This document shows positions 9,749 through 47,600 of a stretch of DNA of 64,000 nt, piece after piece (the stretch's first letter is position 1; every line of letters begins with the position of its first letter). The notes under the pieces are model-generated. The model searched no databases. It was given only the letters and a program-made list of their open reading frames with translations, and was not told the origin of the DNA. Location: IMG/VR virus record IMGVR_UViG_3300017987_000063, positions 1 to 64,000 of that record; one strand, given 5' to 3'. A program made the position numbers and the translations under genes. Source of the DNA: a virus.

Positions 9749-9776
9749 ATTATAGCATATAATTTTATAATGTCAA
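9749..9776 (-). promoter_or_regulatory. Strong sigma70-type promoter, repeated family
   Basis: TTGACA-16 bp-TATAAT with TG extension. Related copies at 19953, 21306, 23795, 27580, 34290, 38071, 46202, 48699, 50765, 52527, 53909. Confidence 0.85.
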
Positions 9777-9785
9777 GTCTTTTCT

Positions 9786-10673
9786 TTATTTTAGCCAATC
9801 TGCGTCCGATCTACTCGCGTCAATGTGGACGTTTAGCCGTAAAACGCCCCGCGCCTGCCTGCCCTTTGTTCTTTTATCGAAGTCCGCCACGCGCTGGAGA
9901 TTAACAGTAGCCCTGCCTCGCATAACCGGAACCACCTCCATCTCGCGCCTGAATGAATGTTGAAATACGGAATTAACCGCCGTCCGCTGGGTAAACAGAA
10001 TATCGCTCCTCGGCAGCCGTGTTGATAAAACTACCCCCGGTCGCGTCCTTGACTGGGCAGAGCGGGCAAAGTTTACCGCCGCACTGGTGCTTCCGCTCCA
10101 CGATGATGTGGGATTTACCCCCACAGTGGCTCGCAAAGTACCGCCTGCGGGTATCCTGTTTACTGTGTTGCCCAACGAACGCCCACCGATACCCCTGTAA
10201 AGGGTCATGGCTGGAACGCCCTGCCTGCCTAATATGTATTGGGTAAAAGCGTACTGCCTATCAAGCCCCCTAAATGCGGTTTCCCTGTCTATCCTGCCAT
10301 AACCCGGCGCGACCTGTCTTCGGAAGGTATATCCATCGTTGAAGCGACGGATTTCGCGGGCTCCACTAAACCTGCGCGGCTGTCCCTCCTCATTCCTCCG
10401 CGTCCAGATGGTTCCCCTGTAGCCGAACCGGGTAGCCGCCCACTCGTGCATTACATGGCCGCCTTCGATATTTGACGAGGCCGACCATGATTGCTGGATG
10501 CCATCCACCGCCTGCCCTTCTGGAGTATCCCTGAAGTCCTGCCGCCAGCGATTGGTAATGGCCTCAGCCTGCGCCGCGTCAATCTCTCCGGTGCCGTACT
10601 CATCCTCAAGCCGCTTAATTTCGGCTTCAACGGCTCCACCGCCCGCGCCTATTGCTCCACCTCCGCGTCCCAT
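9786..10673 (-). CDS. MGRGG-leader protein with ADP-ribosyltransferase-like C-terminal domain
   Basis: N-terminus MGRGGGAIGAGGG; R-S-E-type motifs TLYRG, SSWS...AVNFA, EMEV. Confidence 0.7.
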   Translation of the reverse strand: MGRGGGAIGAGGGAVEAEIKRLEDEYGTGEIDAAQAEAITNRWRQDFRDTPEGQAVDGIQQSWSASSNIEGGHVMHEWAATRFGYRGTIWTRRNEEGQPRRFSGAREIRRFNDGYTFRRQVAPGYGRIDRETAFRGLDRQYAFTQYILGRQGVPAMTLYRGIGGRSLGNTVNRIPAGGTLRATVGVNPTSSWSGSTSAAVNFARSAQSRTRPGVVLSTRLPRSDILFTQRTAVNSVFQHSFRREMEVVPVMRGRATVNLQRVADFDKRTKGRQARGVLRLNVHIDASRSDADWLK

Positions 10674-10774
10674 GTCACATTACTCTTTCACTATAGCGCA
10701 GTGTGACACGCAATCACTTGCGCTTCTTCTTGTTTTTAGGTTTTGGCCCTGTACGGGAAGCATAAGTCTGTCTT

Positions 10775-11401
10775 TTAAGCTGGTTGCGCCTCTGCCGCTC
10801 GACTGTCTTTTTCTTCTTTTTTCGGCCCATTGATAAGCTCCTTTATCATAAGCGGGGTCTCCTTGCCGGTCGGGGCAACCGATATAACCCACGTTACGAA
10901 CTCCGGAAGCGGGGTCTTCTTTATGTCTTCCATTGTCTTAAAACAGTAATCCCCGCTCATGCGGTCGTTCTGACATACCCACCATGCTGGCCAGCCTTTA
11001 AAGGGTAACTTACCGCCCCATGCTTGCCTTATTTCCTCCGCCCATTCCGGCGTTATTTCCTCACAGTCCAACATCTCCAGCATAAAGCCCAGTTTCCACT
11101 TATATTCATGGTCTTCAATACCCCATTTTACCCTGTGAAAAACTGCGGAAATAAGGGCATTACCTGTAGCCTCGTCCGATATAGCATCATGAAGCATCTC
11201 TGCGCTTATTTCCATCTGTGTGCATACTGTTACAGGGGCAAGCACGCCGGGCACTTCCCATTTTTTAAAACCGGCGATCACGGCTCTTTGATAACCCGCG
11301 CCAAATAGGTATTCAAACTCCAGCCCCGCCTCCTTGAACTCGGCTTTTATGGTCTGGAGCAGTCTATGCTTTGCGCCCGCCGAACTTGAAAGAGCCGCCA
11401 C
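10775..11401 (-). CDS. Hypothetical protein
   Basis: 208-aa ORF on coding strand. Confidence 0.6.
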   Translation of the reverse strand: MAALSSSAGAKHRLLQTIKAEFKEAGLEFEYLFGAGYQRAVIAGFKKWEVPGVLAPVTVCTQMEISAEMLHDAISDEATGNALISAVFHRVKWGIEDHEYKWKLGFMLEMLDCEEITPEWAEEIRQAWGGKLPFKGWPAWWVCQNDRMSGDYCFKTMEDIKKTPLPEFVTWVISVAPTGKETPLMIKELINGPKKEEKDSRAAEAQPA

Positions 11402-11702
11402 TGACTCCTCCTTTTTCCACCTTTATGCCTGTAGCCGCATGCTGTTGGCCTTTGATACCAATCGCCCGCCGCTTGGCATCTTGTAAGCTCTGCTCCTTCT
11501 CCAGCGATTTCTTGACCTTAAAATCCAAGTGCCCGCGCTTGTGCCGAACGAAGTCCTCAATGCTCATGTGGTACGGGGGAGCGTTGACCTTGATATGCAT
11601 CTCCTCTCCGCACTTAGGACATAACCGTCGCTCGGTGCGTTTACAGAGAACGTCCATCTCCAGATGCTCGCACTTCGGGCACAGATAATCGTTAAGCTGC
11701 AT
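11364..11702 (-). CDS. Zinc-ribbon protein (FmdB-like)
   Basis: DYLCPKCEH ... CPKCG. Confidence 0.7.
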   Translation of the reverse strand: MQLNDYLCPKCEHLEMDVLCKRTERRLCPKCGEEMHIKVNAPPYHMSIEDFVRHKRGHLDFKVKKSLEKEQSLQDAKRRAIGIKGQQHAATGIKVEKGGVSGGSFKFGGRKA

Positions 11703-11710
11703 AAAACCCC

Positions 11711-12334
11711 CTAATCAAAAGTTGGCCCGTAGACACGCCGCAGAGGGCTGCCAGCCGGTAATGCCCTGCCGACATCGCCTCCCATGCCGTAGCCCAGCCC
11801 CGGCCCGCTTCTGGCAATGTTTCCAGCCGTTGTGGTTCGGGGCATCCTACCCCTGTAAAGCACATACCGCGCCCGTGGTGCCCTTGTACCGGGAACTCCA
11901 GTGTTAAACATATCCGCATTTCCGCTTCCCGGTGTTCTGTCAAGGTTGCTCAAGGCTATGCCATTAAACCTCAAGGCCGTGCCCTGCCCTCCGGCTCCAA
12001 ACGTTCCTCCCCCTTGAGATGTAAGCCTTAGCTCTCCGCCCTGTCGTGCCACAACCCCATGCGCCGCAATGTGGATATTGCCTCCAATATCGCCCCTGCT
12101 AGGCTCCCAGTCGTTAAACCGGACAACCTCCATCGCCGTATAACGATTTCCACGCTCTCCTGCCCGCTGCTGGATTAAAGTGTACGGGGTATTGGGCTCC
12201 ATTCGCCGGGTCAACATCTCGGACATCGCAGCGGCATCATACTCGCCAAGCGGAATGACCTCTGCAGATGCCGGTAAAGCTCCAGAGAGACCGGCTATGC
12301 CGCCACCCCCACCTGCTGCTCCGCCTCTGCCCAT
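11711..12334 (-). CDS. MGRGG-leader protein, unknown domain
   Basis: MGRGGAAGGGGG; AGGAG RBS; no Lys or Cys in 207 aa. Confidence 0.8.
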   Translation of the reverse strand: MGRGGAAGGGGGIAGLSGALPASAEVIPLGEYDAAAMSEMLTRRMEPNTPYTLIQQRAGERGNRYTAMEVVRFNDWEPSRGDIGGNIHIAAHGVVARQGGELRLTSQGGGTFGAGGQGTALRFNGIALSNLDRTPGSGNADMFNTGVPGTRAPRARYVLYRGRMPRTTTAGNIARSGPGLGYGMGGDVGRALPAGSPLRRVYGPTFD

Positions 12335-12335
12335 T

Positions 12336-12683
12336 TTACTCCTCCTTCTTGCTCTTGCGCTGTCCCAGTCTTACCCGCGTTATATTCGCTCCTACCCGAT
12401 CCAGTTGGGCAGGCCCGATGCGGATAAACTGGCGGGTCGTAGGATTTGATAACACAACATCCCTGCCCGGCCCGCGAATCGCCCGCGCATTGTTGAATGT
12501 TCGCTCGTTTATCGTAAGGCTGCCCGCGCCCTGATTGCCCCGAACCACCACCTGTCCCTGATTGTTGATAGCCGTGCTGGTCATGTTTCCAATAGGAACC
12601 CCCAATGCCCGCGCCAGATTTTCAGCGGTTCCGGCTCCAGACACCGAGTTTCCCGCTCCTGCTCCACCACCTCCGCGTCCCAT
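12336..12683 (-). CDS. MGRGG-leader protein (115 aa; start corrected to 12683)
   Basis: MGRGGGGAGAG with AAGGAG RBS directly after the upstream stop. Confidence 0.8.
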   Translation of the reverse strand: MGRGGGGAGAGNSVSGAGTAENLARALGVPIGNMTSTAINNQGQVVVRGNQGAGSLTINERTFNNARAIRGPGRDVVLSNPTTRQFIRIGPAQLDRVGANITRVRLGQRKSKKEE

Positions 12684-12684
12684 A

Positions 12685-12948
12685 TTACTTCTCCTTCCTG
12701 AAAGTAGTGATTCCCGCTGTCGTAGCCCTGCGGACATCCGCCCGCCGTGGCTGCGGAAATTTATCTATGATAACCCGATCCTCTATTGACCGGGTATCCT
12801 TGATATTGCTCACGCTGTTCATTAACCTTCTATCTTCCGCCGATATATCAGGGTCGTTTAATATGCCCTCAATATCGGCCTGCAAATCTGACAACGTAGC
12901 TTCTATCGCGGGGCCTCCGCCCCCTGCTCTGCCTCCGCCTCGTCCCAT
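12685..12948 (-). CDS. MGRGG-leader protein (87 aa)
   Basis: MGRGGGRAGGGG; preceded by a promoter. Confidence 0.8.
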   Translation of the reverse strand: MGRGGGRAGGGGPAIEATLSDLQADIEGILNDPDISAEDRRLMNSVSNIKDTRSIEDRVIIDKFPQPRRADVRRATTAGITTFRKEK

Positions 12949-12965
12949 TCCGCCTCTCTTTAACT

Positions 12966-12994
12966 ATTATAATAGCTTTTATTTCACTTGTCAA
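12966..12994 (-). promoter_or_regulatory. Consensus promoter upstream of three MGRGG genes
   Basis: TTGACA-17 bp-TATAAT overlapping the end of the ParB-like gene. Confidence 0.8.
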
Positions 12995-13733
12995 GCGTAG
13001 CCAGCCACTCCCGTGCCGCCGGCTCCAGTAACTCGTGCATTTGCTTGTTATTATCCCTGCAATAATCCGCAAGGTCGTCCATAACGTCCTTGAAAGACGA
13101 GGACATTTGCACCCAGTAATGCGGCCTGCCGTTAAGGGTCAACACGATAAAACTGTGCTGCAGGTCGCTGCCATGCTTCGTCAAGGTCTGCTGTATGACT
13201 CGCCCCAAGTCTTTCACACTCTCCACGCCCTGCGCCGCCTCTCCGAATCTTTTACCGGTCTCGCCGGGGAGCCCGCGCTGGATTTTACCGACAAGACTCT
13301 GAAGGGCCTCCATCTTGCTGAATCCCATAAGCCCTTTTAAAGCCTCATCGGAATACTTCTGCGCCATCTCCTTGTATAAGGCCATAAATTTGGTCTTGTT
13401 TAGCCTGCCCTTGACGATATTAAGCTGCATATTGACGAATTTCTGTCTGTCTTCGTCGAATTCCTTCGGGTCAAGCACCACACAGGGAAGAGTTTCCCAG
13501 CCTAAAGCCCGCGCCGCTTTCCATCTATGCTCCCCTCCAACTATCTGGTACTTGGCGGGCTCCTCAAGCCCCTCTTTCGGAAGCACCTGTATAGGGTCAA
13601 TCATCCCTATCTCATCCAGCTTTTCGGCGAGAATGTTAAACTCCTCCTCGTCCATCTGATTGGGGTTCCATGGAGCGGGCAGAATTTCTCCTATCGGAAT
13701 ATCCTGCACTGTGCCGCGAAGTTTACCTGACAT
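12984..13733 (-). CDS. ParB/Srx N-terminal domain protein
   Basis: PAPWNPNQMD, GMIDPIQV, YQIVGGEHRWKAA. Confidence 0.88.
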   Translation of the reverse strand: MSGKLRGTVQDIPIGEILPAPWNPNQMDEEEFNILAEKLDEIGMIDPIQVLPKEGLEEPAKYQIVGGEHRWKAARALGWETLPCVVLDPKEFDEDRQKFVNMQLNIVKGRLNKTKFMALYKEMAQKYSDEALKGLMGFSKMEALQSLVGKIQRGLPGETGKRFGEAAQGVESVKDLGRVIQQTLTKHGSDLQHSFIVLTLNGRPHYWVQMSSSFKDVMDDLADYCRDNNKQMHELLEPAAREWLATLDK

Positions 13734-13752
13734 CTTTTACTCCTTTCATCCG

Positions 13753-14124
13753 TTAATCGCCGCGCCGCTGCGGGCCTCCACCGGTTGTTCTAGGAGGCAA
13801 GTAACTAAGTCTTCCGCTTATGGTAATCAAACCGCCTCCCGGTGTCCTGTTCACTGTCTGTCGAGTATCGGTAAAGCCTATGCCGGAAGCCCGTAACGAC
13901 CCGCGAATCGCCCTGTTAAGGTCTGTCGCATCGGCTCTTGTAGCTACCTCAAGATTCCCAGTCTGAAAAATTGCCCTATTCCCGACCATGCGCATCGAAT
14001 TTACTGGAAGATTCTGTGTAGACTCTGCCAGTCTGCGGGGGGTTATTGCAAGATTCGGAAATAATGGCTGGCCTTCAATAACTCCACCCGCTCCACCACC
14101 TCCTGCTGTGCCTCCTCTACCCAT
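13753..14124 (-). CDS. MGRGG-leader protein (123 aa)
   Basis: MGRGGTAGGGGAGG; AGGAGG RBS; no Lys or Cys. Confidence 0.8.
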   Translation of the reverse strand: MGRGGTAGGGGAGGVIEGQPLFPNLAITPRRLAESTQNLPVNSMRMVGNRAIFQTGNLEVATRADATDLNRAIRGSLRASGIGFTDTRQTVNRTPGGGLITISGRLSYLPPRTTGGGPQRRGD

Positions 14125-14125
14125 C

Positions 14126-14530
14126 TTATTCCTCCTTCATGACGCGCTTTAAGCTGCCGCCGTATTCCCTGAAACCATCCCGCGCCGCGTTCATCTCCGA
14201 CCGCGCCGCATTAAAATTACCCGCACGAAATTCAGCAGATGCCCGCCCAAATCTGGCCGCGCCTTGCGTATATGCCCTCGGCTGCCACAAACCTCCTATC
14301 GGTGGCCTCTCGTTGCGACGGAGCGTGTTGAGCGTGCGCCGCTCCAGTTGCGCCGCTGTTCTTGCCCGCCTTGCCATTTCCGTATTGTTGCCTGCTGGTA
14401 TCGGCCTTGCCAGTTCCGCAGCCGCGTTCTGAAGCAGGTTCGTTTCGTTTGCTAATTGTTCGTCCCAGTTTCGGGCAGTGAATGTAACTCCACCGCCCGC
14501 TCCACCTCCTGCTGCTCCGCCGCGTCCCAT
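14126..14530 (-). CDS. MGRGG-leader protein (134 aa, helical)
   Basis: MGRGGAAGGGAGGG; AGGAG RBS. Confidence 0.8.
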   Translation of the reverse strand: MGRGGAAGGGAGGGVTFTARNWDEQLANETNLLQNAAAELARPIPAGNNTEMARRARTAAQLERRTLNTLRRNERPPIGGLWQPRAYTQGAARFGRASAEFRAGNFNAARSEMNAARDGFREYGGSLKRVMKEE

Positions 14531-14539
14531 TATTGTCTC

Positions 14540-14692
14540 CTATTTGGCTCTTTTTGCCTGTCTGTGCTCGCGCTTTCGTTCTTCCTTAGCCTGTCGTGCC
14601 TTTTTTCGCTGTTTAGCCCTGTCCTCTTGCCGATACCGGACTCTCGAAGGCTTATTTTTCTTTGAACGCTTACCTTTTTTAGCCTTCCCCAT
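14540..14692 (-). CDS. 50-aa highly basic peptide (not in ORF track)
   Basis: MGKAKKGKRSKKNKPSRVRYRQEDRAKQRKKARQAKEERKREHRQAKRAK; 25 of 50 residues K/R; fills the gap between neighbouring genes. Confidence 0.65.
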   Translation of the reverse strand: MGKAKKGKRSKKNKPSRVRYRQEDRAKQRKKARQAKEERKREHRQAKRAK

Positions 14693-14873
14693 CGGTCTTA
14701 TCCTCTATCGGCCTGCCCTTTATTCTATTCCAAATCGAGCTTGGAATACCGAATATCTTTTTAGCCCTGCTCTTTTCAATCCGGTTTGCCTCTCGAATAT
14801 TCTCGATATACTCCTCGGCGTGCTCCACCACCGCCTTCTCGACATCATCCGTCAACTTATCCGCATACTTCAT
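14679..14873 (-). CDS. Hypothetical protein
   Basis: ATGA overlap with upstream gene. Confidence 0.6.
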   Translation of the reverse strand: MKYADKLTDDVEKAVVEHAEEYIENIREANRIEKSRAKKIFGIPSSIWNRIKGRPIEDKTDGEG

Positions 14874-15418
14874 GGTCTTACTTCCTCCTCGCGGCCATTG
14901 CCCGCGCCGCCATGCTGCATAATCAGGTCTGCCGCCCGCTCGCTGAAGCCGAATCCTACCAGTAAATCCCTATCTCCCTTGCGTTTTTCCGCCGGTACAT
15001 CCCGCACCCGCTGCTTCATGGCTATTATAGCCGCCCGCACGGACTCGGACACTAGTCCGCGATCCCGCAGGTCACCGCCATCCTTGTAAATCCGGCCAAG
15101 TAAGCGGAACTCCCTGCGAAGTGCGGGCTCCTCATCGCCTCCCTGTACCCCATGAATGGCCTCATGAATAGCCGAAGATGCCCACAGAACCGCGCTGTCC
15201 TTTATCGTGTTTGGATTTAAGGCAATAACCTTAGATTTAAGGTAGGAGCTTCCGAACAAACCGGGACGCTTCTCCTCTTCCACGCGCCGCAGGCCGCCCA
15301 TCAGCCTGACATCGCTGCCGTCCAAGAACCTCCAGCCGGATTTCAGGCCGCGATCAATCCGCTCCGTCTCAACCTGCCTGCGCCTGCGCCACTGCATGTA
15401 ATTTTGCTGCGTCGCCAT
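14870..15418 (-). CDS. Putative zincin metallopeptidase (182 aa; start MATQQ)
   Basis: SSAIHEAIHG...DEE (HExxH plus downstream Glu); GGAG RBS before ATG 15418. Confidence 0.6.
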   Translation of the reverse strand: MATQQNYMQWRRRRQVETERIDRGLKSGWRFLDGSDVRLMGGLRRVEEEKRPGLFGSSYLKSKVIALNPNTIKDSAVLWASSAIHEAIHGVQGGDEEPALRREFRLLGRIYKDGGDLRDRGLVSESVRAAIIAMKQRVRDVPAEKRKGDRDLLVGFGFSERAADLIMQHGGAGNGREEEVRP

Positions 15419-16478
15419 ATCGCTCTCCCTTTTCCTCGATAATAGTATCATAAGCCGACTGCAAATACTCGGCATTATCCACAAATAAATCCGGAATAGT
15501 GTTACCATGACTCCAGCCGCGATCCCCGTAACAATGCCGGTGAAATTCCGCATACCGGTAAGCCTGCGCGTCCACAAAAGTTGCGTTCTGGCAAACCTCC
15601 AAGAGCCTCCTCATTCGCTTTGGGCCGCTCGCGCCGAAAAACACCATCCGCACGGGATACCCAACCCTGTCGAAAAACCGCTCCAACAACTTCACCTCGC
15701 GCTCCAGTTGCTTTTCGTTCATGCGCCGGACTGTCTGCATGTTAAGAGAGACCACCGGGACGTTATTACCTCGCACCCAATCCGCGCACCTGTCCACATC
15801 TATCAACCGCACCCAGCCCACGTCCGGCACCACGTTTACCCCGCGCTGCTGCAGTTTTTCAAGGCTTTGGAAGCATCTTTTTAGATTAACAAGGCGGTCA
15901 AGAGGCGGATAATTATCATACATGCTGAAATTTATGGCAAATACGAAGTCAACTCCCTGATACCACGCAATTTTATCGTAAACCGCCTCAATATTCTCCA
16001 GCCACATATCCAGCACCCTGTCCTTCGTAGCAAAGTTCAGGCAAAGTTTGCTCTCCGCCGGTATGTTAAAGCGGGCTTTCAGGTCGCGCTCCCTGCCCCA
16101 TGACTGGTAACGCCAATAAAAAATGTGCTTGAGGGCGATGGTGTAGATAGGTTGATAAAGGTTATATGCGGTTCCATTAAGCTGCCAGATGAAAGGAGGC
16201 CAATCCTGCGGGCTTTCAGCGAAGCTCCACGGAGCCCATCGTTCGGTAAGGCGTAACGTGCCCAAGCCCTCCAGAACCTTATCCTTGTCGGGCCTGTCGC
16301 AGCACACGGCGCGACAATGATCACACTGACCGGTACACCACCGCGCATCGTCTTCAGGCCGCCAGCCGCCGCATATAGGGCGAATTTTACATGATAGGCA
16401 TCGAGCCGTTTTTTCAAGCTCTGCCGTAGAGAAGAAGTGCCTCTTATGCTTAGGCACCTTTGAAATATCAAAGCCCAT
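15369..16478 (-). CDS. DUF4417-like protein with Cys-rich N-terminal metal-binding region
   Basis: NFSMYDNYP...NLKR...LQQRGVNVVPDVGW matches my recollection of the DUF4417 core; N-terminal CxxC-x5-C and CxxxCxxCxxxCC. Confidence 0.65.
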   Translation of the reverse strand: MGFDISKVPKHKRHFFSTAELEKTARCLSCKIRPICGGWRPEDDARWCTGQCDHCRAVCCDRPDKDKVLEGLGTLRLTERWAPWSFAESPQDWPPFIWQLNGTAYNLYQPIYTIALKHIFYWRYQSWGRERDLKARFNIPAESKLCLNFATKDRVLDMWLENIEAVYDKIAWYQGVDFVFAINFSMYDNYPPLDRLVNLKRCFQSLEKLQQRGVNVVPDVGWVRLIDVDRCADWVRGNNVPVVSLNMQTVRRMNEKQLEREVKLLERFFDRVGYPVRMVFFGASGPKRMRRLLEVCQNATFVDAQAYRYAEFHRHCYGDRGWSHGNTIPDLFVDNAEYLQSAYDTIIEEKGERYGDAAKLHAVAQAQAG

Positions 16479-44689: not shown

Positions 44690-47600
44690 TTATTTTTCCC
44701 CCGCTTCCTCGCTGGAGGGGTCTCCTCTTCCTGCTCCTCTACGGCTTTTTGCAATACATAAGGAGGCGCCCCTTCACGAATTAAAAGGCGCAAATAATCC
44801 GCGTCGGTCTCTGCCTGCAAAATCAGACCTTCTTTTATAAGCGTCCGCTCAAATTCTGCAATAACATTGCCTGTAATGTAGCGGTAGCCATTTACCTCTT
44901 TAAAAAGTTTAGCCCATGCCCTTCCAAGTTCCAGCCGTATTCCTTCATCTTCACAACCTCGTGCAGCATCGTAAAGAGGGTCGAGCGCGAAGGCATCCGC
45001 AAATTCCCTAAAAACCGGATCGTCATTTCCTTTTTTGTGTAGTCTGAAGATTATCGAAAGCTCGTTCTTCCGCCATTCTAGCTCAACTTTAATTGGGATA
45101 ATATCGGTAAGCGTATCTGTAGGCATACAACCTCCTTCTCCTTAAATAATGAAGCCCGCCGAGGGCAGCAAAATGATGGGTAGAAAAGGTGCGCTACACT
45201 CCCGGCGGGCTTTTGATTTTCTTTATGTATCCACCCATCGTTCGGAAGCATAGCATCCCGTGCCGCGCATGTCAAGTAAAAAATCAGCAATGGGGGCAAT
45301 TTTCCTCATCAGTATCGAAAAGAAGCATATCCATAAGCATTTCTTCCTTAGCTTCCAGATAGGTCTTTCGCTGCATTTTATTGGGATACAGGCTATCAAC
45401 CACCTTTTTTGCCGCCTGTTTTAAAGGGCACTTGTCGCTGTTTACGTCCGGACATTTATCACAACCTTCCGGCCCCGCGCACCCGCTGAAGTCAATTAGG
45501 TCTTTCATTAAGCCTCTCCTTCCACCAGTTTCATGGCTCTGGTAACCAGCGGCTTTCCAACCACCCACCCGCAGGGCATTGTATGCGCGAAGGCTTTGCC
45601 GCGCCTGTACGCCTTGTCTGCATGGGTAATGGCTTTCGCTATACGCTCGGCCTCGGCTATACAGTCTTCACAGCCCACCAGCGGGTCGCCGCAGTTTGAC
45701 CCTTTCGTGGCTCCGAGCTTCCAGCATTTACGCATCCCGAAGTTTTTAGCCCTCATTTCATCCTTGCCCTCCGGAACCCCGTTCGTCCCGAAGAATTTAT
45801 CCAGCTTCTCAAGATTCGGTAATCCTATCATTGTCCTGTCCTCCTTTTTAGTTTCGGCCTCATAAAAGACCTTGTTATAAATCTCGTAAACCTTATCCTC
45901 CGCCGCTGTCTGCCCGTATCCTACTATATACCGGCCTATGGTTATGGCGAAGCCTATTATCCTTTCCCTTACCGCCGTATCGTCCACCTCGCGGAACCCT
46001 TTGCCGGTGGCCATTCTGAACATGGTCATAAAGTATTTTTTTAACGCCCGTGCGAAGGTAACCCCTTCTTCACAGTCCTTTTTCAGCAGGATGGCCATGT
46101 TACGCACCCGCCTGTTACCCTCTGGAGTAAACATGCTCCACTCGGTCGGTACGTTTATTTTCTTATGTATTGCTCTCATGTCCTGTCCCCCTTATACTAT
46201 TATTATAGCATATATTTTTATAATGTCAAGTCTTTTCATAGCACTTTCGCCAGAAAAATGCAAGACCAGCGAAAAAATTTTTCGTGGGTCGGTTTTTGCG
46301 GTATCCGAAAAAAGTAATGCCCCTCTTGGACATTGAGGGGCATTTTAAGGAGGGGGTATAAAAACGAGCCGTTATTTTATGGCTCTGAGAGAAGCCTGCT
46401 CACGCGGAATATCCGTCTGCAGCCGACCAAGTCGGTTACAGTGAATTACTTGGAAGCCATCCCGCTCGGCGCAAGAATACTGTGGGCCTTCCCAATGGCG
46501 CGGAATGGCCTTGTAACAACCAGCCGGAGCGATTTGAGCGCACGGCCCTGCACAAGTCTTCATACATCCTCGCATCATTTTAACCGGCATTTCTGCCTCC
46601 TGATTAAAAATATAACATACATCCCGCCACTTGTCAACCCCCGATGCGCCTTGTGACGGGTCGCGGTGCCTAGTGGAGTCCATCTGCCTTCTCCTCCTTC
46701 ATTTGCAGATAGGCCGCCGCAATCTCTGTCATGTGCGCCGCCGAAAAGCCTATTAGGTACATGGCAATCTCCCGCGAATTGCAGCCATGCTTCCACAAGG
46801 GCATCAGGTAGGGAATATTCGCCCGCGCCTCGTCCATTTCCATCATGCGCTCAATCAGCTTGGCATAAGTCATCCACGGTTCCTCTCCCGTATGCTCAAA
46901 CTGCTTTTTCAGTTGGGACATGGCTCCGAGAACACGTTTAGTCAGTTTTTCGCTCATTGGCATCATCCTTAAAGCTGTCGGGCAGGCACAAATTGCACTC
47001 TCCTTCGCCTCGCATGATTTTAATGGCCTCTTCCCCGTGCTTCTCGGCAATAATCCTGTCCACCTCTTTCATATCGTTCCAGAACTTATCGCGCACCTCG
47101 TCCGTAACCCTGCCAACGAAGTCCTTCTTCTCCACAGACCATATCAATGGCCCGCATAAAACGTGTGCATCCGGATGAATTGCGTGGATAAGCTCCAGAC
47201 GCTTTTCCTCCCAGTCCGCGTTGACCACCTTCATTTCCTTGCGGACATGCTCCAGCAGCACCGGTATTGCGCCTCGCTCAAACACATCCTGCGTGGCATC
47301 CATGATTTTTTTCCGCACATCGGTCAACTGTGCGTCACGCTCCGTCGTAAGCGTCCCAGCGAAGCTCCCATTGCGCCTGTACTGTTCCAGCCCATCCAGC
47401 ACCAGCCCAAACTCCTCCGCGTCAAGCTCCAGTATTACAAGATCGCTCATGTTGCCTCCTTTTTAGGGTGGGGGGCTTGCAGGGAATCTCACCCTGACAC
47501 CGGGTAGCTATGCCGGTATTGGCCACAAGCCCCCATAAAATTTAAAGCGTCCGGTCTCTCACCGAATCGGTCATGGCCACTCCCGTTTTTACCGGCCTGT

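Follow-up and report, generated by a model that had tools for sequence, protein, structure and literature searches.

In bacteriophage T4, a 10-residue capsid targeting sequence (CTS) loads polymorphic basic internal proteins that are later ejected, and the ADP-ribosyltransferase (ART) Alt is loaded and ejected likewise (PMC9026906). A separate body of work has described lysine deserts, long Lys-free stretches in which Arg is kept and which have been proposed to shield proteins from Lys-directed tagging (Szulc et al. 2023, PMC10665810; reviewed in PMC13696103). A protein qualifies when a continuous Lys-free region takes up 50% or more of its sequence or extends over 150 amino acids (aa) or more (PMC10665810). 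Among phages, the published signal is proteome-wide and comes from high-GC Mycobacterium phages (PMC10665810, PMC13696103); high GC confounds the signals from phages and actinobacteria, as the review itself points out, and deserts are debated for that reason (PMC13696103). Lysine deserts and shared N-terminal tags on phage head proteins are both, in other words, already known. Here we describe a locus in which a tag and a desert occur together. It lies in the window, the first 64 kb of the 90,971-bp phage record IMGVR_UViG_3300017987_000063 from IMG/VR (G000 hereafter), where six genes, P1 to P6, encode proteins that share a Gly-rich N-terminal leader beginning MGRGG and that contain no Cys and very little Lys. 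Our literature search found no paper on a Gly-rich tag coupled to Lys- and Cys-free polycationic proteins.

Like the T4 CTS proteins (IPI, IPII, IPIII and Alt), the products of these genes are otherwise unrelated, basic, poorly conserved proteins headed by a short N-terminal peptide. As in T4, they are Cys-free, one member is a predicted ART, and the genome may encode a gp21-like protease domain, as a weak structural model suggests. With lysine deserts they share the long Lys-free stretches and the retention of Arg. The desert described here, however, is confined to a tag-defined class in mid-GC genomes whose other proteins are Lys-rich, and it is accompanied by the total loss of Cys.

Results

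Six MGRGG proteins depleted of lysine and cysteine

The six MGRGG open reading frames (ORFs) all lie on the minus strand, as do nearly all genes of the record; they have good Shine-Dalgarno sites, are tightly packed and add up to 961 aa. A recount of their residues gave figures identical to those of an earlier, sequence-only reading of this DNA: 4, 0, 3, 4, 0 and 2 Lys in P1 to P6, or 13 Lys and no Cys in 961 residues. Arg numbers 121 (12.6%). P1 (9786..10673; 295 aa, 41 Arg) joins the leader to a predicted DRAT-type ART. P2 (11711..12334; 207 aa, 22 Arg) and P5 (13753..14124; 123 aa, 15 Arg) are orphans. All three Lys of P3 (12336..12683; 13 Arg) fall within its last six residues; we used the 115-aa form that starts at the MGRGG ATG, an alternative ATG upstream at 12737 giving 133 aa. 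P6 (14126..14530; 134 aa, 19 Arg) has both of its Lys within the last seven residues, and P4 (12685..12948; 87 aa, 11 Arg) is the least extreme of the six.

The 87 other minus-strand ORFs of the record, which served as background, contain 6.56% Lys, 6.12% Arg and 1.17% Cys. The fraction K/(K+R) ranges from 0.00 to 0.27 in the six proteins, against a median of 0.50 in the others (Mann-Whitney p = 4e-5), and the Lys and Arg counts of the two sets differ strongly (Fisher p = 5.7e-24). Five of the six tagged proteins are among the seven lowest K/(K+R) values of all 93 ORFs. Since the sum of Lys and Arg is about equal in the two sets, Lys has been swapped for Arg and overall charge has not changed. 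As for Cys, 16 of 48 size-matched other ORFs also lack it, so that the chance of finding six of six Cys-free is about 0.001.

Local base composition, which the sequence-only reading had named as an explanation that would refute its inference, does not account for the bias. GC content at third codon positions (GC3) is 0.55 in the six genes and 0.56 in the others, and at fourfold-degenerate sites 0.52 and 0.60. Among the other ORFs K/(K+R) does not drop with rising GC, and the six genes use Arg codons just as the rest of the genome does. Moreover, Lys (AAR) is depleted 5-fold in these proteins while Asn (AAY) is enriched 1.5-fold. The overall GC of the six ORFs (0.53-0.60) is slightly above the window mean; GC3 is not raised, and this extra GC is the Lys-to-Arg swap itself. 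Recent paralogy was considered and rejected: compared pairwise without their leaders, the six give no significant match (best E = 0.017), hence a recent duplication is not the source of the shared composition. What keeps the bodies of these proteins free of Lys and Cys and poor in His is selection on the peptide rather than base composition, Arg supplying the positive charge.

The longest Lys-free runs of P1 to P6 measure 246 of 295, 207 of 207, 109 of 115, 49 of 87, 123 of 123 and 127 of 134 residues. All six thus reach at least 50% of their length, and P1 and P2 also contain at least 150 Lys-free residues; only five other ORFs of at least 80 aa have a Lys-free run covering at least 50% of their length. 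As had been noticed from the sequence, the residual Lys of the six is mostly in C-terminal tails. Three of these tails, KKEE-stop, MKEE-stop and KEK-stop, are what results when the AAGGAG Shine-Dalgarno sequence of the following gene is translated in frame (gene ends at 12336-12350, 12685-12700 and 14126-14140), so that part of the residual Lys is imposed by translational coupling. The contrast with the immediate neighbors, also drawn in that reading, is real: the ParB-like protein has 21 Lys and 11 Arg, the zinc ribbon protein 15 and 8, and a 50-aa peptide is very basic. A 208-aa neighbor is likewise Lys-rich (18 Lys, 6 Arg), and some neighbors are Cys-rich.

Five of the six proteins carry a net charge of +7 to +16, P4 only +1. 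On a charge-hydropathy plot they sit at the border between folded and disordered proteins, and in all six the count of RG plus GR dipeptides equals the shuffled expectation (p 0.28-1.0). We therefore rejected RGG/GAR low-complexity RNA-binding regions as a description of their bodies, RG/GR being not enriched and the proteins not clearly disordered.

The bias follows the leader into other phages

P2 to P6 gave no family match in Pfam and PHROG profile searches. No homologue of P2 was found among 5.8 billion proteins, and its structural look-alikes in the Atlas are at chance level; P5 has no relative among 1.84 billion representatives. P6 has a weak homologue in contig L006 (13162-13497, E = 0.005), and P1 has one homologue, P0002, at 51% identity. 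A scan of genome contigs for homologues found none, nor did cultured phages match the DNA of the region, P1 or the DUF4417-like protein encoded nearby.

The leader itself could be traced further. Pooling the six proteins with those from other sources yields 17 leader proteins of 2,523 aa in total, with 39 Lys, 321 Arg, 13 His and no Cys; this absence of Cys is a far stronger result than that for the six alone. The bias recurs in four other sources of 47-58% GC, so that it is not absent from leader proteins elsewhere, the outcome that would have told against a shared constraint. L006 (48% GC) contains two tagged ORFs, MGTSGAGGGG... (1 Lys, 17 Arg, 0 Cys) and MGVRGARGGG... (0 Lys, 17 Arg, 0 Cys), and L009 (56% GC) has one (2 Lys, 19 Arg, 0 Cys) between its DUF4417-like and HExxH genes. 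G001/L132 (86.8 kb, 47.6% GC) carries exactly five ORFs tagged MGD[AG]x-Gly; four are Lys-poor, all five are Cys-free, and two hold the lowest two K/(K+R) values of 99 ORFs. Two MAKGGG ORFs follow the ParB-like gene of L151 (58.5% GC), their sole Lys lying within the tag, and P0002 has 7 Lys, 37 Arg and no Cys. Lys also occurs inside the tag in G001 (MGDGKG). The tagged proteins with no Lys at all include P2, P5, L006b and G001b.

The avoidance of Lys is ongoing, as judged from the rarity of Arg-to-Lys change: in aligned tagged homologues a substituted Arg has become Lys in 6 of 78 cases (8%), against 34 of 132 (26%) in the DUF4417-like, HExxH and ParB genes at these loci (p = 0.001). Moreover, of the 31 Lys left in proteins of at least 100 aa, 23 fall within 35 residues of the N-terminus or 30 of the C-terminus, compared with 86 of 277 Arg (p = 5e-6). 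The bodies of the tagged proteins are essentially Lys-free. Treating the six as one functional class, as proposed from the sequence, is supported by these results: the bias is common to proteins with no homology past the leader, and it tracks the leader into four other sources.

Scans of viral contigs with degenerate tag patterns returned mostly chance Gly runs, L151 being the useful exception. On an unrelated viral contig we noted a 513-aa protein starting MGSGGGGGGGGG (L085 2182-3723, minus strand; L080 from 723, plus strand), with a strong ribosome-binding site, 5 Lys, 40 Arg, 0 Cys and no PHROG family match; it is possibly another tagged, Lys-free protein. The ParB neighbors of Rhizobium phage RHph_TM16 include no Gly-tagged proteins.

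The glycine-rich leader

The leader common to the six proteins consists of MGRGG followed by a Gly/Ala run of about 10 residues, some 15 residues in all. The Arg3 codon varies (CGC, AGA, CGA), as do the third positions of the leader codons, and this variation at synonymous sites makes an RNA-level motif unlikely in place of a peptide tag. The Gly codons do keep GG whatever synonym is used, and an RNA role of the G tracts remains compatible with the data. Position 2 is always Gly in this phage, G001, L006 and L009, and Ala or Arg in L151 and P0002.

No consistent cleavage motif follows the Gly run: x-x-E occurs within residues 14-26 in the six proteins and is not found in L006 or L009. Lys-directed cleavage of the leader was rejected, as several members have no Lys, and a search for LPXTG-type sortase signals produced just two chance matches. 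Past the Gly run, several tagged proteins have a second short motif, roughly G-x-(I/V/Y)-D-(A/S)-(A/S), located at residues 27-36 of P1 and 28-36 of P2 and also present in the ORFs at 11070-11612 of L009 and 9455-9988 of L132. Judging from this motif, the functional tag may be about 35 residues long.

P1 is a predicted DRAT-type ADP-ribosyltransferase

P1 scores above the Pfam cut-off for the DraT family PF07357 (27.2 bits, cut-off 25; E = 2.7e-6), a family likewise assigned to P0001 and P0002. Its Y-R160-G, S190-S-W-S193 and E244-M-E246 elements are invariant in P0002; the R, S-x-S and E-x-E positions were picked by inspection, not by alignment to a solved ART. An AF2 model of P1 was too poor for searching (predicted local distance difference test, pLDDT, 45). 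The Atlas model (predicted template modeling score, pTM, 0.79) matches DRAT clusters with template modeling (TM) scores of 0.62-0.64, and a phage cluster with a TM score of 0.60 whose members carry Phage_Mu_F (99%), DRAT (37%) and ADPrib_exo_Tox (27%). The likeness to the latter cluster is restricted to the region that P1 has in common with it, and Pfam finds no MuF domain in P1. Together these matches make P1 a predicted DRAT-type (R-S-ExE) ART.

Promoters and neighboring genes

A perfect sigma-70 promoter (TTGACA-17-TATAAT; 12994-12966, minus strand) lies just upstream of P4-P3-P2, and another (9776-9749, minus strand), a member of a conserved early family, directly follows the P1 stop codon. 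Copies of this family, near-identical to one another, consist of TTGACA, a 16-nt spacer ending in an extended TG, TATAAT and then aATAgT; on the minus strand they precede many non-structural genes between 9749 and 53936 (for example at 9776, 19980, 38098, 46229, 50792 and 52554). A second class has a 17-nt unconserved spacer (12994, 36217, 34318). Promoters matching at least 11 of 12 positions are confined to the stretch from 9.7 to 54 kb, apart from one at 88 kb, with none in the tail block.

Within the cluster, the ParB-like gene (12984..13733, minus strand) matches Pfam ParB_N (E = 8e-13) and phrog_26387 (E = 1e-51). Directly upstream of P6 is the gene for the 50-aa peptide (14540..14692, minus strand), made almost entirely of Lys, Arg, Glu, Gln and Ala; small Lys-rich ORFs occupy its position in L006 and G001 too. 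A small HExxH protein (14870..15415, minus strand) is conserved beside the leader genes in L006, L009 and L132, as alignment shows; it has no family or structure match in Pfam or the PDB and is at most a candidate peptidase. The block is headed, in four phages, by a Cys-rich DUF4417-like gene (15369..16478, minus strand), whose match to Pfam PF14386 (E = 3e-4) is below the cut-off and whose profile has no match among PDB sequences; its homologues in L006, L009 and L132 are 41-43% identical. A 387-aa protein of L151, considered as a further DUF4417-like member, showed no detectable similarity and was discarded. In L006 the order is DUF4417-like, HExxH, small Lys-rich ORF, ParB-like, two tagged ORFs and an SNase-like gene. 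Overall, four phages have tagged genes alongside the DUF4417-like and HExxH genes, and three (this window, L006 and L151) have them alongside a ParB-like gene.

Head genes

G000 encodes DNA polymerase, a DnaB-type helicase, methyltransferases, a contractile-tail module, a capsid protein and a portal. The portal gene (88033-90786 of G000, or 6033-8786 of L008, minus strand) contains a LAGLIDADG-type insertion, probably an intein, its product being 917 aa long as opposed to 556 aa in G001. After it comes a gene for a 1081-aa protein (84176-87421 of G000, or 2176-5421 of L008, minus strand) whose N-terminal domain resembles the T4 prohead protease gp21 in a model of mean pLDDT 50. For the N-terminal 140 aa the top structural match among 48,161 chains was gp21 itself (5jbl; Z 8.0, root-mean-square deviation 4.1, 128 residues aligned); the next match had Z 5.8, and the protease of the herpesvirus VZV (varicella-zoster virus) Z 5.6. 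Pfam, PDB sequence searches and Foldseek returned nothing significant for this domain. In this protein, H67, S123 and H152 are invariant with the G001 homologue, and what follows the N-terminal domain, long and Lys-rich, may be a fused scaffold.

One of the tagged genes of G001 overlaps the beginning of the gene for the large terminase, which is followed by the portal, a 1127-aa protein homologous to the 1081-aa protein, and the capsid gene. The gene order of L151 resembles that of G001; the assignments there are a ParB and a weak portal match only. The virion block of G000 shows the same trend as the tagged proteins in milder form, with 4.4% Lys and 0.35% Cys versus 7.7% and 1.6%. In the T4 record (NC_000866), the prohead-core and internal proteins that we examined, IPII, IPIII, gp22, gp67 and gp68, are all Cys-free but Lys-rich.

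Discussion

The six proteins make up a single class of accessory proteins, polycationic and evolving fast, whose defining feature is a Gly/Ala-rich N-terminal tag of about 15 residues. The sequence data do not discriminate among the three causes put forward in the sequence-only reading, which were amine or thiol chemistry restricted to the N-terminus, passage through a conduit, and escape from Lys-directed conjugation or proteolysis; the tolerance of Lys in the leader and the end pieces and the Cys-free but Lys-rich make-up of the T4 head-internal proteins narrow the choice slightly. What the tag does, and what has driven Lys from the proteins behind it, can be approached through the T4 analogy. 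Our leading explanation, a tentative one that we rate somewhat below an even chance, is that the tagged proteins are head cargo of the T4 CTS type whose bodies exclude Lys and Cys. One could envision the tag acting like the T4 capsid targeting sequence and loading the proteins into the prohead, where they would be stored with the DNA until ejected into the host; one of them would be an Alt-like, arginine-type ART. Stored copies would be irreplaceable and would have to withstand the maturation protease, long storage outside the cell and passage across the envelope, and after that any Lys-directed tagging or proteolysis that the host may mount. This would explain why Lys and Cys have been cleared from the body and are admitted in the end pieces alone. 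Packaging, cleavage of the tag and the agent selecting against Lys are what we infer in this scheme. It draws on the likeness of the P1 model to the MuF-bearing phage cluster, on the virion-like composition of all six proteins once Lys, Arg and Cys are left out (17-19% of non-virion ORFs score that way), on the Cys-free T4 head-internal proteins, on the place of tagged genes before the packaging genes in G001 and L151, on the putative gp21-like domain and on the T4 precedent itself. The restriction of Lys to the ends fits a scheme in which internal cleavage is avoided or the folded body is constrained more readily than one in which conjugation, or nucleophiles as such, are avoided; the ends themselves may be trimmed, however, which would make every version compatible with it.

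The likeness to T4 has its limits. The T4 tag reads MKTYQEFIAE, that of the present proteins is Gly/Ala-rich (MGRGG...GGG), and no L/I-x-E cleavage site is evident behind it. K/(K+R) is 0.76-0.79 in the T4 internal proteins, as opposed to the Lys-poor proteins described here. Unlike the T4 CTS system, the tagged genes carry consensus sigma-70 promoters, and packaging and cleavage are steps that we infer for them.

Several observations weigh against the head-cargo explanation. The T4 internal proteins and Alt are rich in Lys, and packaging alone therefore creates no need to avoid it; the T4 head-internal proteins being Cys-free but Lys-rich, a place among the head cargo could account for the lack of Cys and would not on its own account for that of Lys. 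The tagged genes are probably transcribed early by the host polymerase, to judge from their promoters. Such timing would be unusual for head cargo and suits cytoplasmic take-over effectors at least as well. The gp21-like protease domain is suggested by a model of low confidence that hidden Markov model searches do not back. The virion-like composition is a soft kind of evidence. One tagged ORF of G001 (46078-46557, 159 aa), although Cys-free, has a normal Lys content (9 Lys, 9 Arg). Finally, the ParB and capsid matches point to hosts scattered over many phyla, which leaves the Lys-directed host system of this scheme hypothetical.

The early promoters bring up an explanation that we regard as unlikely, although it deserves serious weight: the proteins could be early cytoplasmic effectors of host takeover, made at once by the host RNA polymerase and never packaged, their Lys-free bodies evading a Lys-directed host system (the Pup-proteasome, ubiquitin-like conjugation of the Bil type or acetylation) and their tag serving processing, localization or turnover. 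The cluster lies within the promoter-rich early region and has two perfect sigma-70 promoters (12994-12966 and 9776-9749); T4 ModA and ModB, annotated as early unpackaged ARTs, show that an ART such as P1 is not necessarily cargo; and the view of lysine deserts as a shield against Lys-directed tagging is well established and has been put forward for Mycobacterium phages (PMC10665810, PMC13696103). A general cytoplasmic pressure is not evident, however, since other early genes, the immediate neighbors included, encode Lys-rich and often Cys-rich proteins. Nor is there an obvious cytoplasmic reason for the absence of Cys from 2,523 aa, and Lys is tolerated at the flexible termini, precisely the most accessible sites for conjugation. 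The virion-like composition that remains once Lys, Arg and Cys are excluded, and the position of tagged genes close upstream of the packaging genes in G001 and L151, also argue for the head rather than the cytoplasm. A preference of the protamine kind, in which the proteins would bind or condense nucleic acid and favor Arg over Lys for contacts with phosphates and bases, the loss of Cys and His being a side effect, strikes us as quite improbable. Sperm protamines, adenovirus VII/Mu and baculovirus P6.9 are Arg-rich, Lys-poor DNA-condensing proteins, and some Arg-rich viral core proteins mature from precursors through trimming by a viral protease at Gly-rich sites. The tagged proteins resemble this group in being polycationic with Arg strongly preferred to Lys: the swap is plain, Arg amounts to 12.6%, five of the six have a net charge of +7 to +16, and DNA-handling genes (ParB-like, SNase-like, DUF4417-like) are their neighbors. 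They differ in that Arg reaches 12-14% rather than 25-60% and in that their bodies look foldable, one of them being a predicted enzyme (P1). The net charge of just +1 in P4, the lack of RG/GR enrichment in proteins at the fold/disorder border and the Lys-rich nature of the DNA-associated T4 internal proteins are hard to fit into this account, which also leaves the rarity of Arg-to-Lys substitution and the confinement of Lys to the ends unexplained.

If instead the purge served chemistry at the N-terminus, the Gly exposed by Met removal would be the only nucleophile of each protein, and an enzyme of the block (the DUF4417-like/ParB pair or the HExxH protein), or else the head protease working by transpeptidation, would couple the tag covalently to DNA or to a protein or other component of the head; the bodies would have been cleared of Lys, Cys and His so that coupling occurs at the tag only. 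To this idea we give a very low probability. It draws on the Lys-free members P2, P5, L006b and G001b, on the lack of Cys in all 17 proteins and near-absence of His (13 in 2,523 aa), on the invariance of Gly2 in this phage, G001, L006 and L009, and on the company of the tagged genes, which travel with the DUF4417-like and HExxH genes in four phages and with ParB-like genes in three; fusions of DUF4417 to ParB folds are frequent in phages (bioRxiv 10.1101/2025.10.10.680097). The scheme is pure conjecture as far as the chemistry goes, our searches having assigned no reaction to any enzyme of the block, and the Lys present in the tags of G001 and L151 and in the tails would compete as nucleophiles. 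Position 2 is moreover Ala or Arg in L151 and P0002, and one tagged protein has nine Lys. That there is no special constraint at all, and that base composition, shared ancestry or chance produced the pattern, we consider hardly credible. The slightly higher GC of the six ORFs (0.53-0.60) relative to the window mean and the low K/(K+R) of some virion proteins (0.26-0.32) are what could be cited for it; GC3 is not raised, Asn is enriched, Arg codons are those of the genome, the six are not paralogous beyond the leader, and the same bias is found at 47-48% GC, with a Fisher p of 6e-24 in the present phage.

The ART of this set invites comparison with two further systems. MuF-fused polymorphic toxins and other head-delivered ARTs place a comparable domain, as far as the P1 model can tell, on a head-associated carrier. 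P1 has no MuF domain, and in the place of a carrier it has a Gly-rich tag of 15 residues. With the DraT family (PF07357) P1 shares a score above the Pfam cut-off, the R, S-x-S and E-x-E elements and TM scores of 0.62-0.64. It differs in being a phage protein with a tag, 14% Arg and almost no Lys, and in having no nitrogenase context.

A desert confined to a tag-defined class and replicated in several lineages provides a clean natural case for learning what attacks lysine, be it a protease, a conjugation system or a chemical reaction. It is tempting to speculate that the Gly-rich tag may represent a second, non-T4 way to address variable effectors, one of them a predicted ART, with relevance for phage counter-defence and for the engineering of phage heads as protein carriers. 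Were the N-terminal Gly indeed the sole amine available for coupling, phages would turn out to possess a new type of conjugation, between protein and DNA or between protein and capsid.

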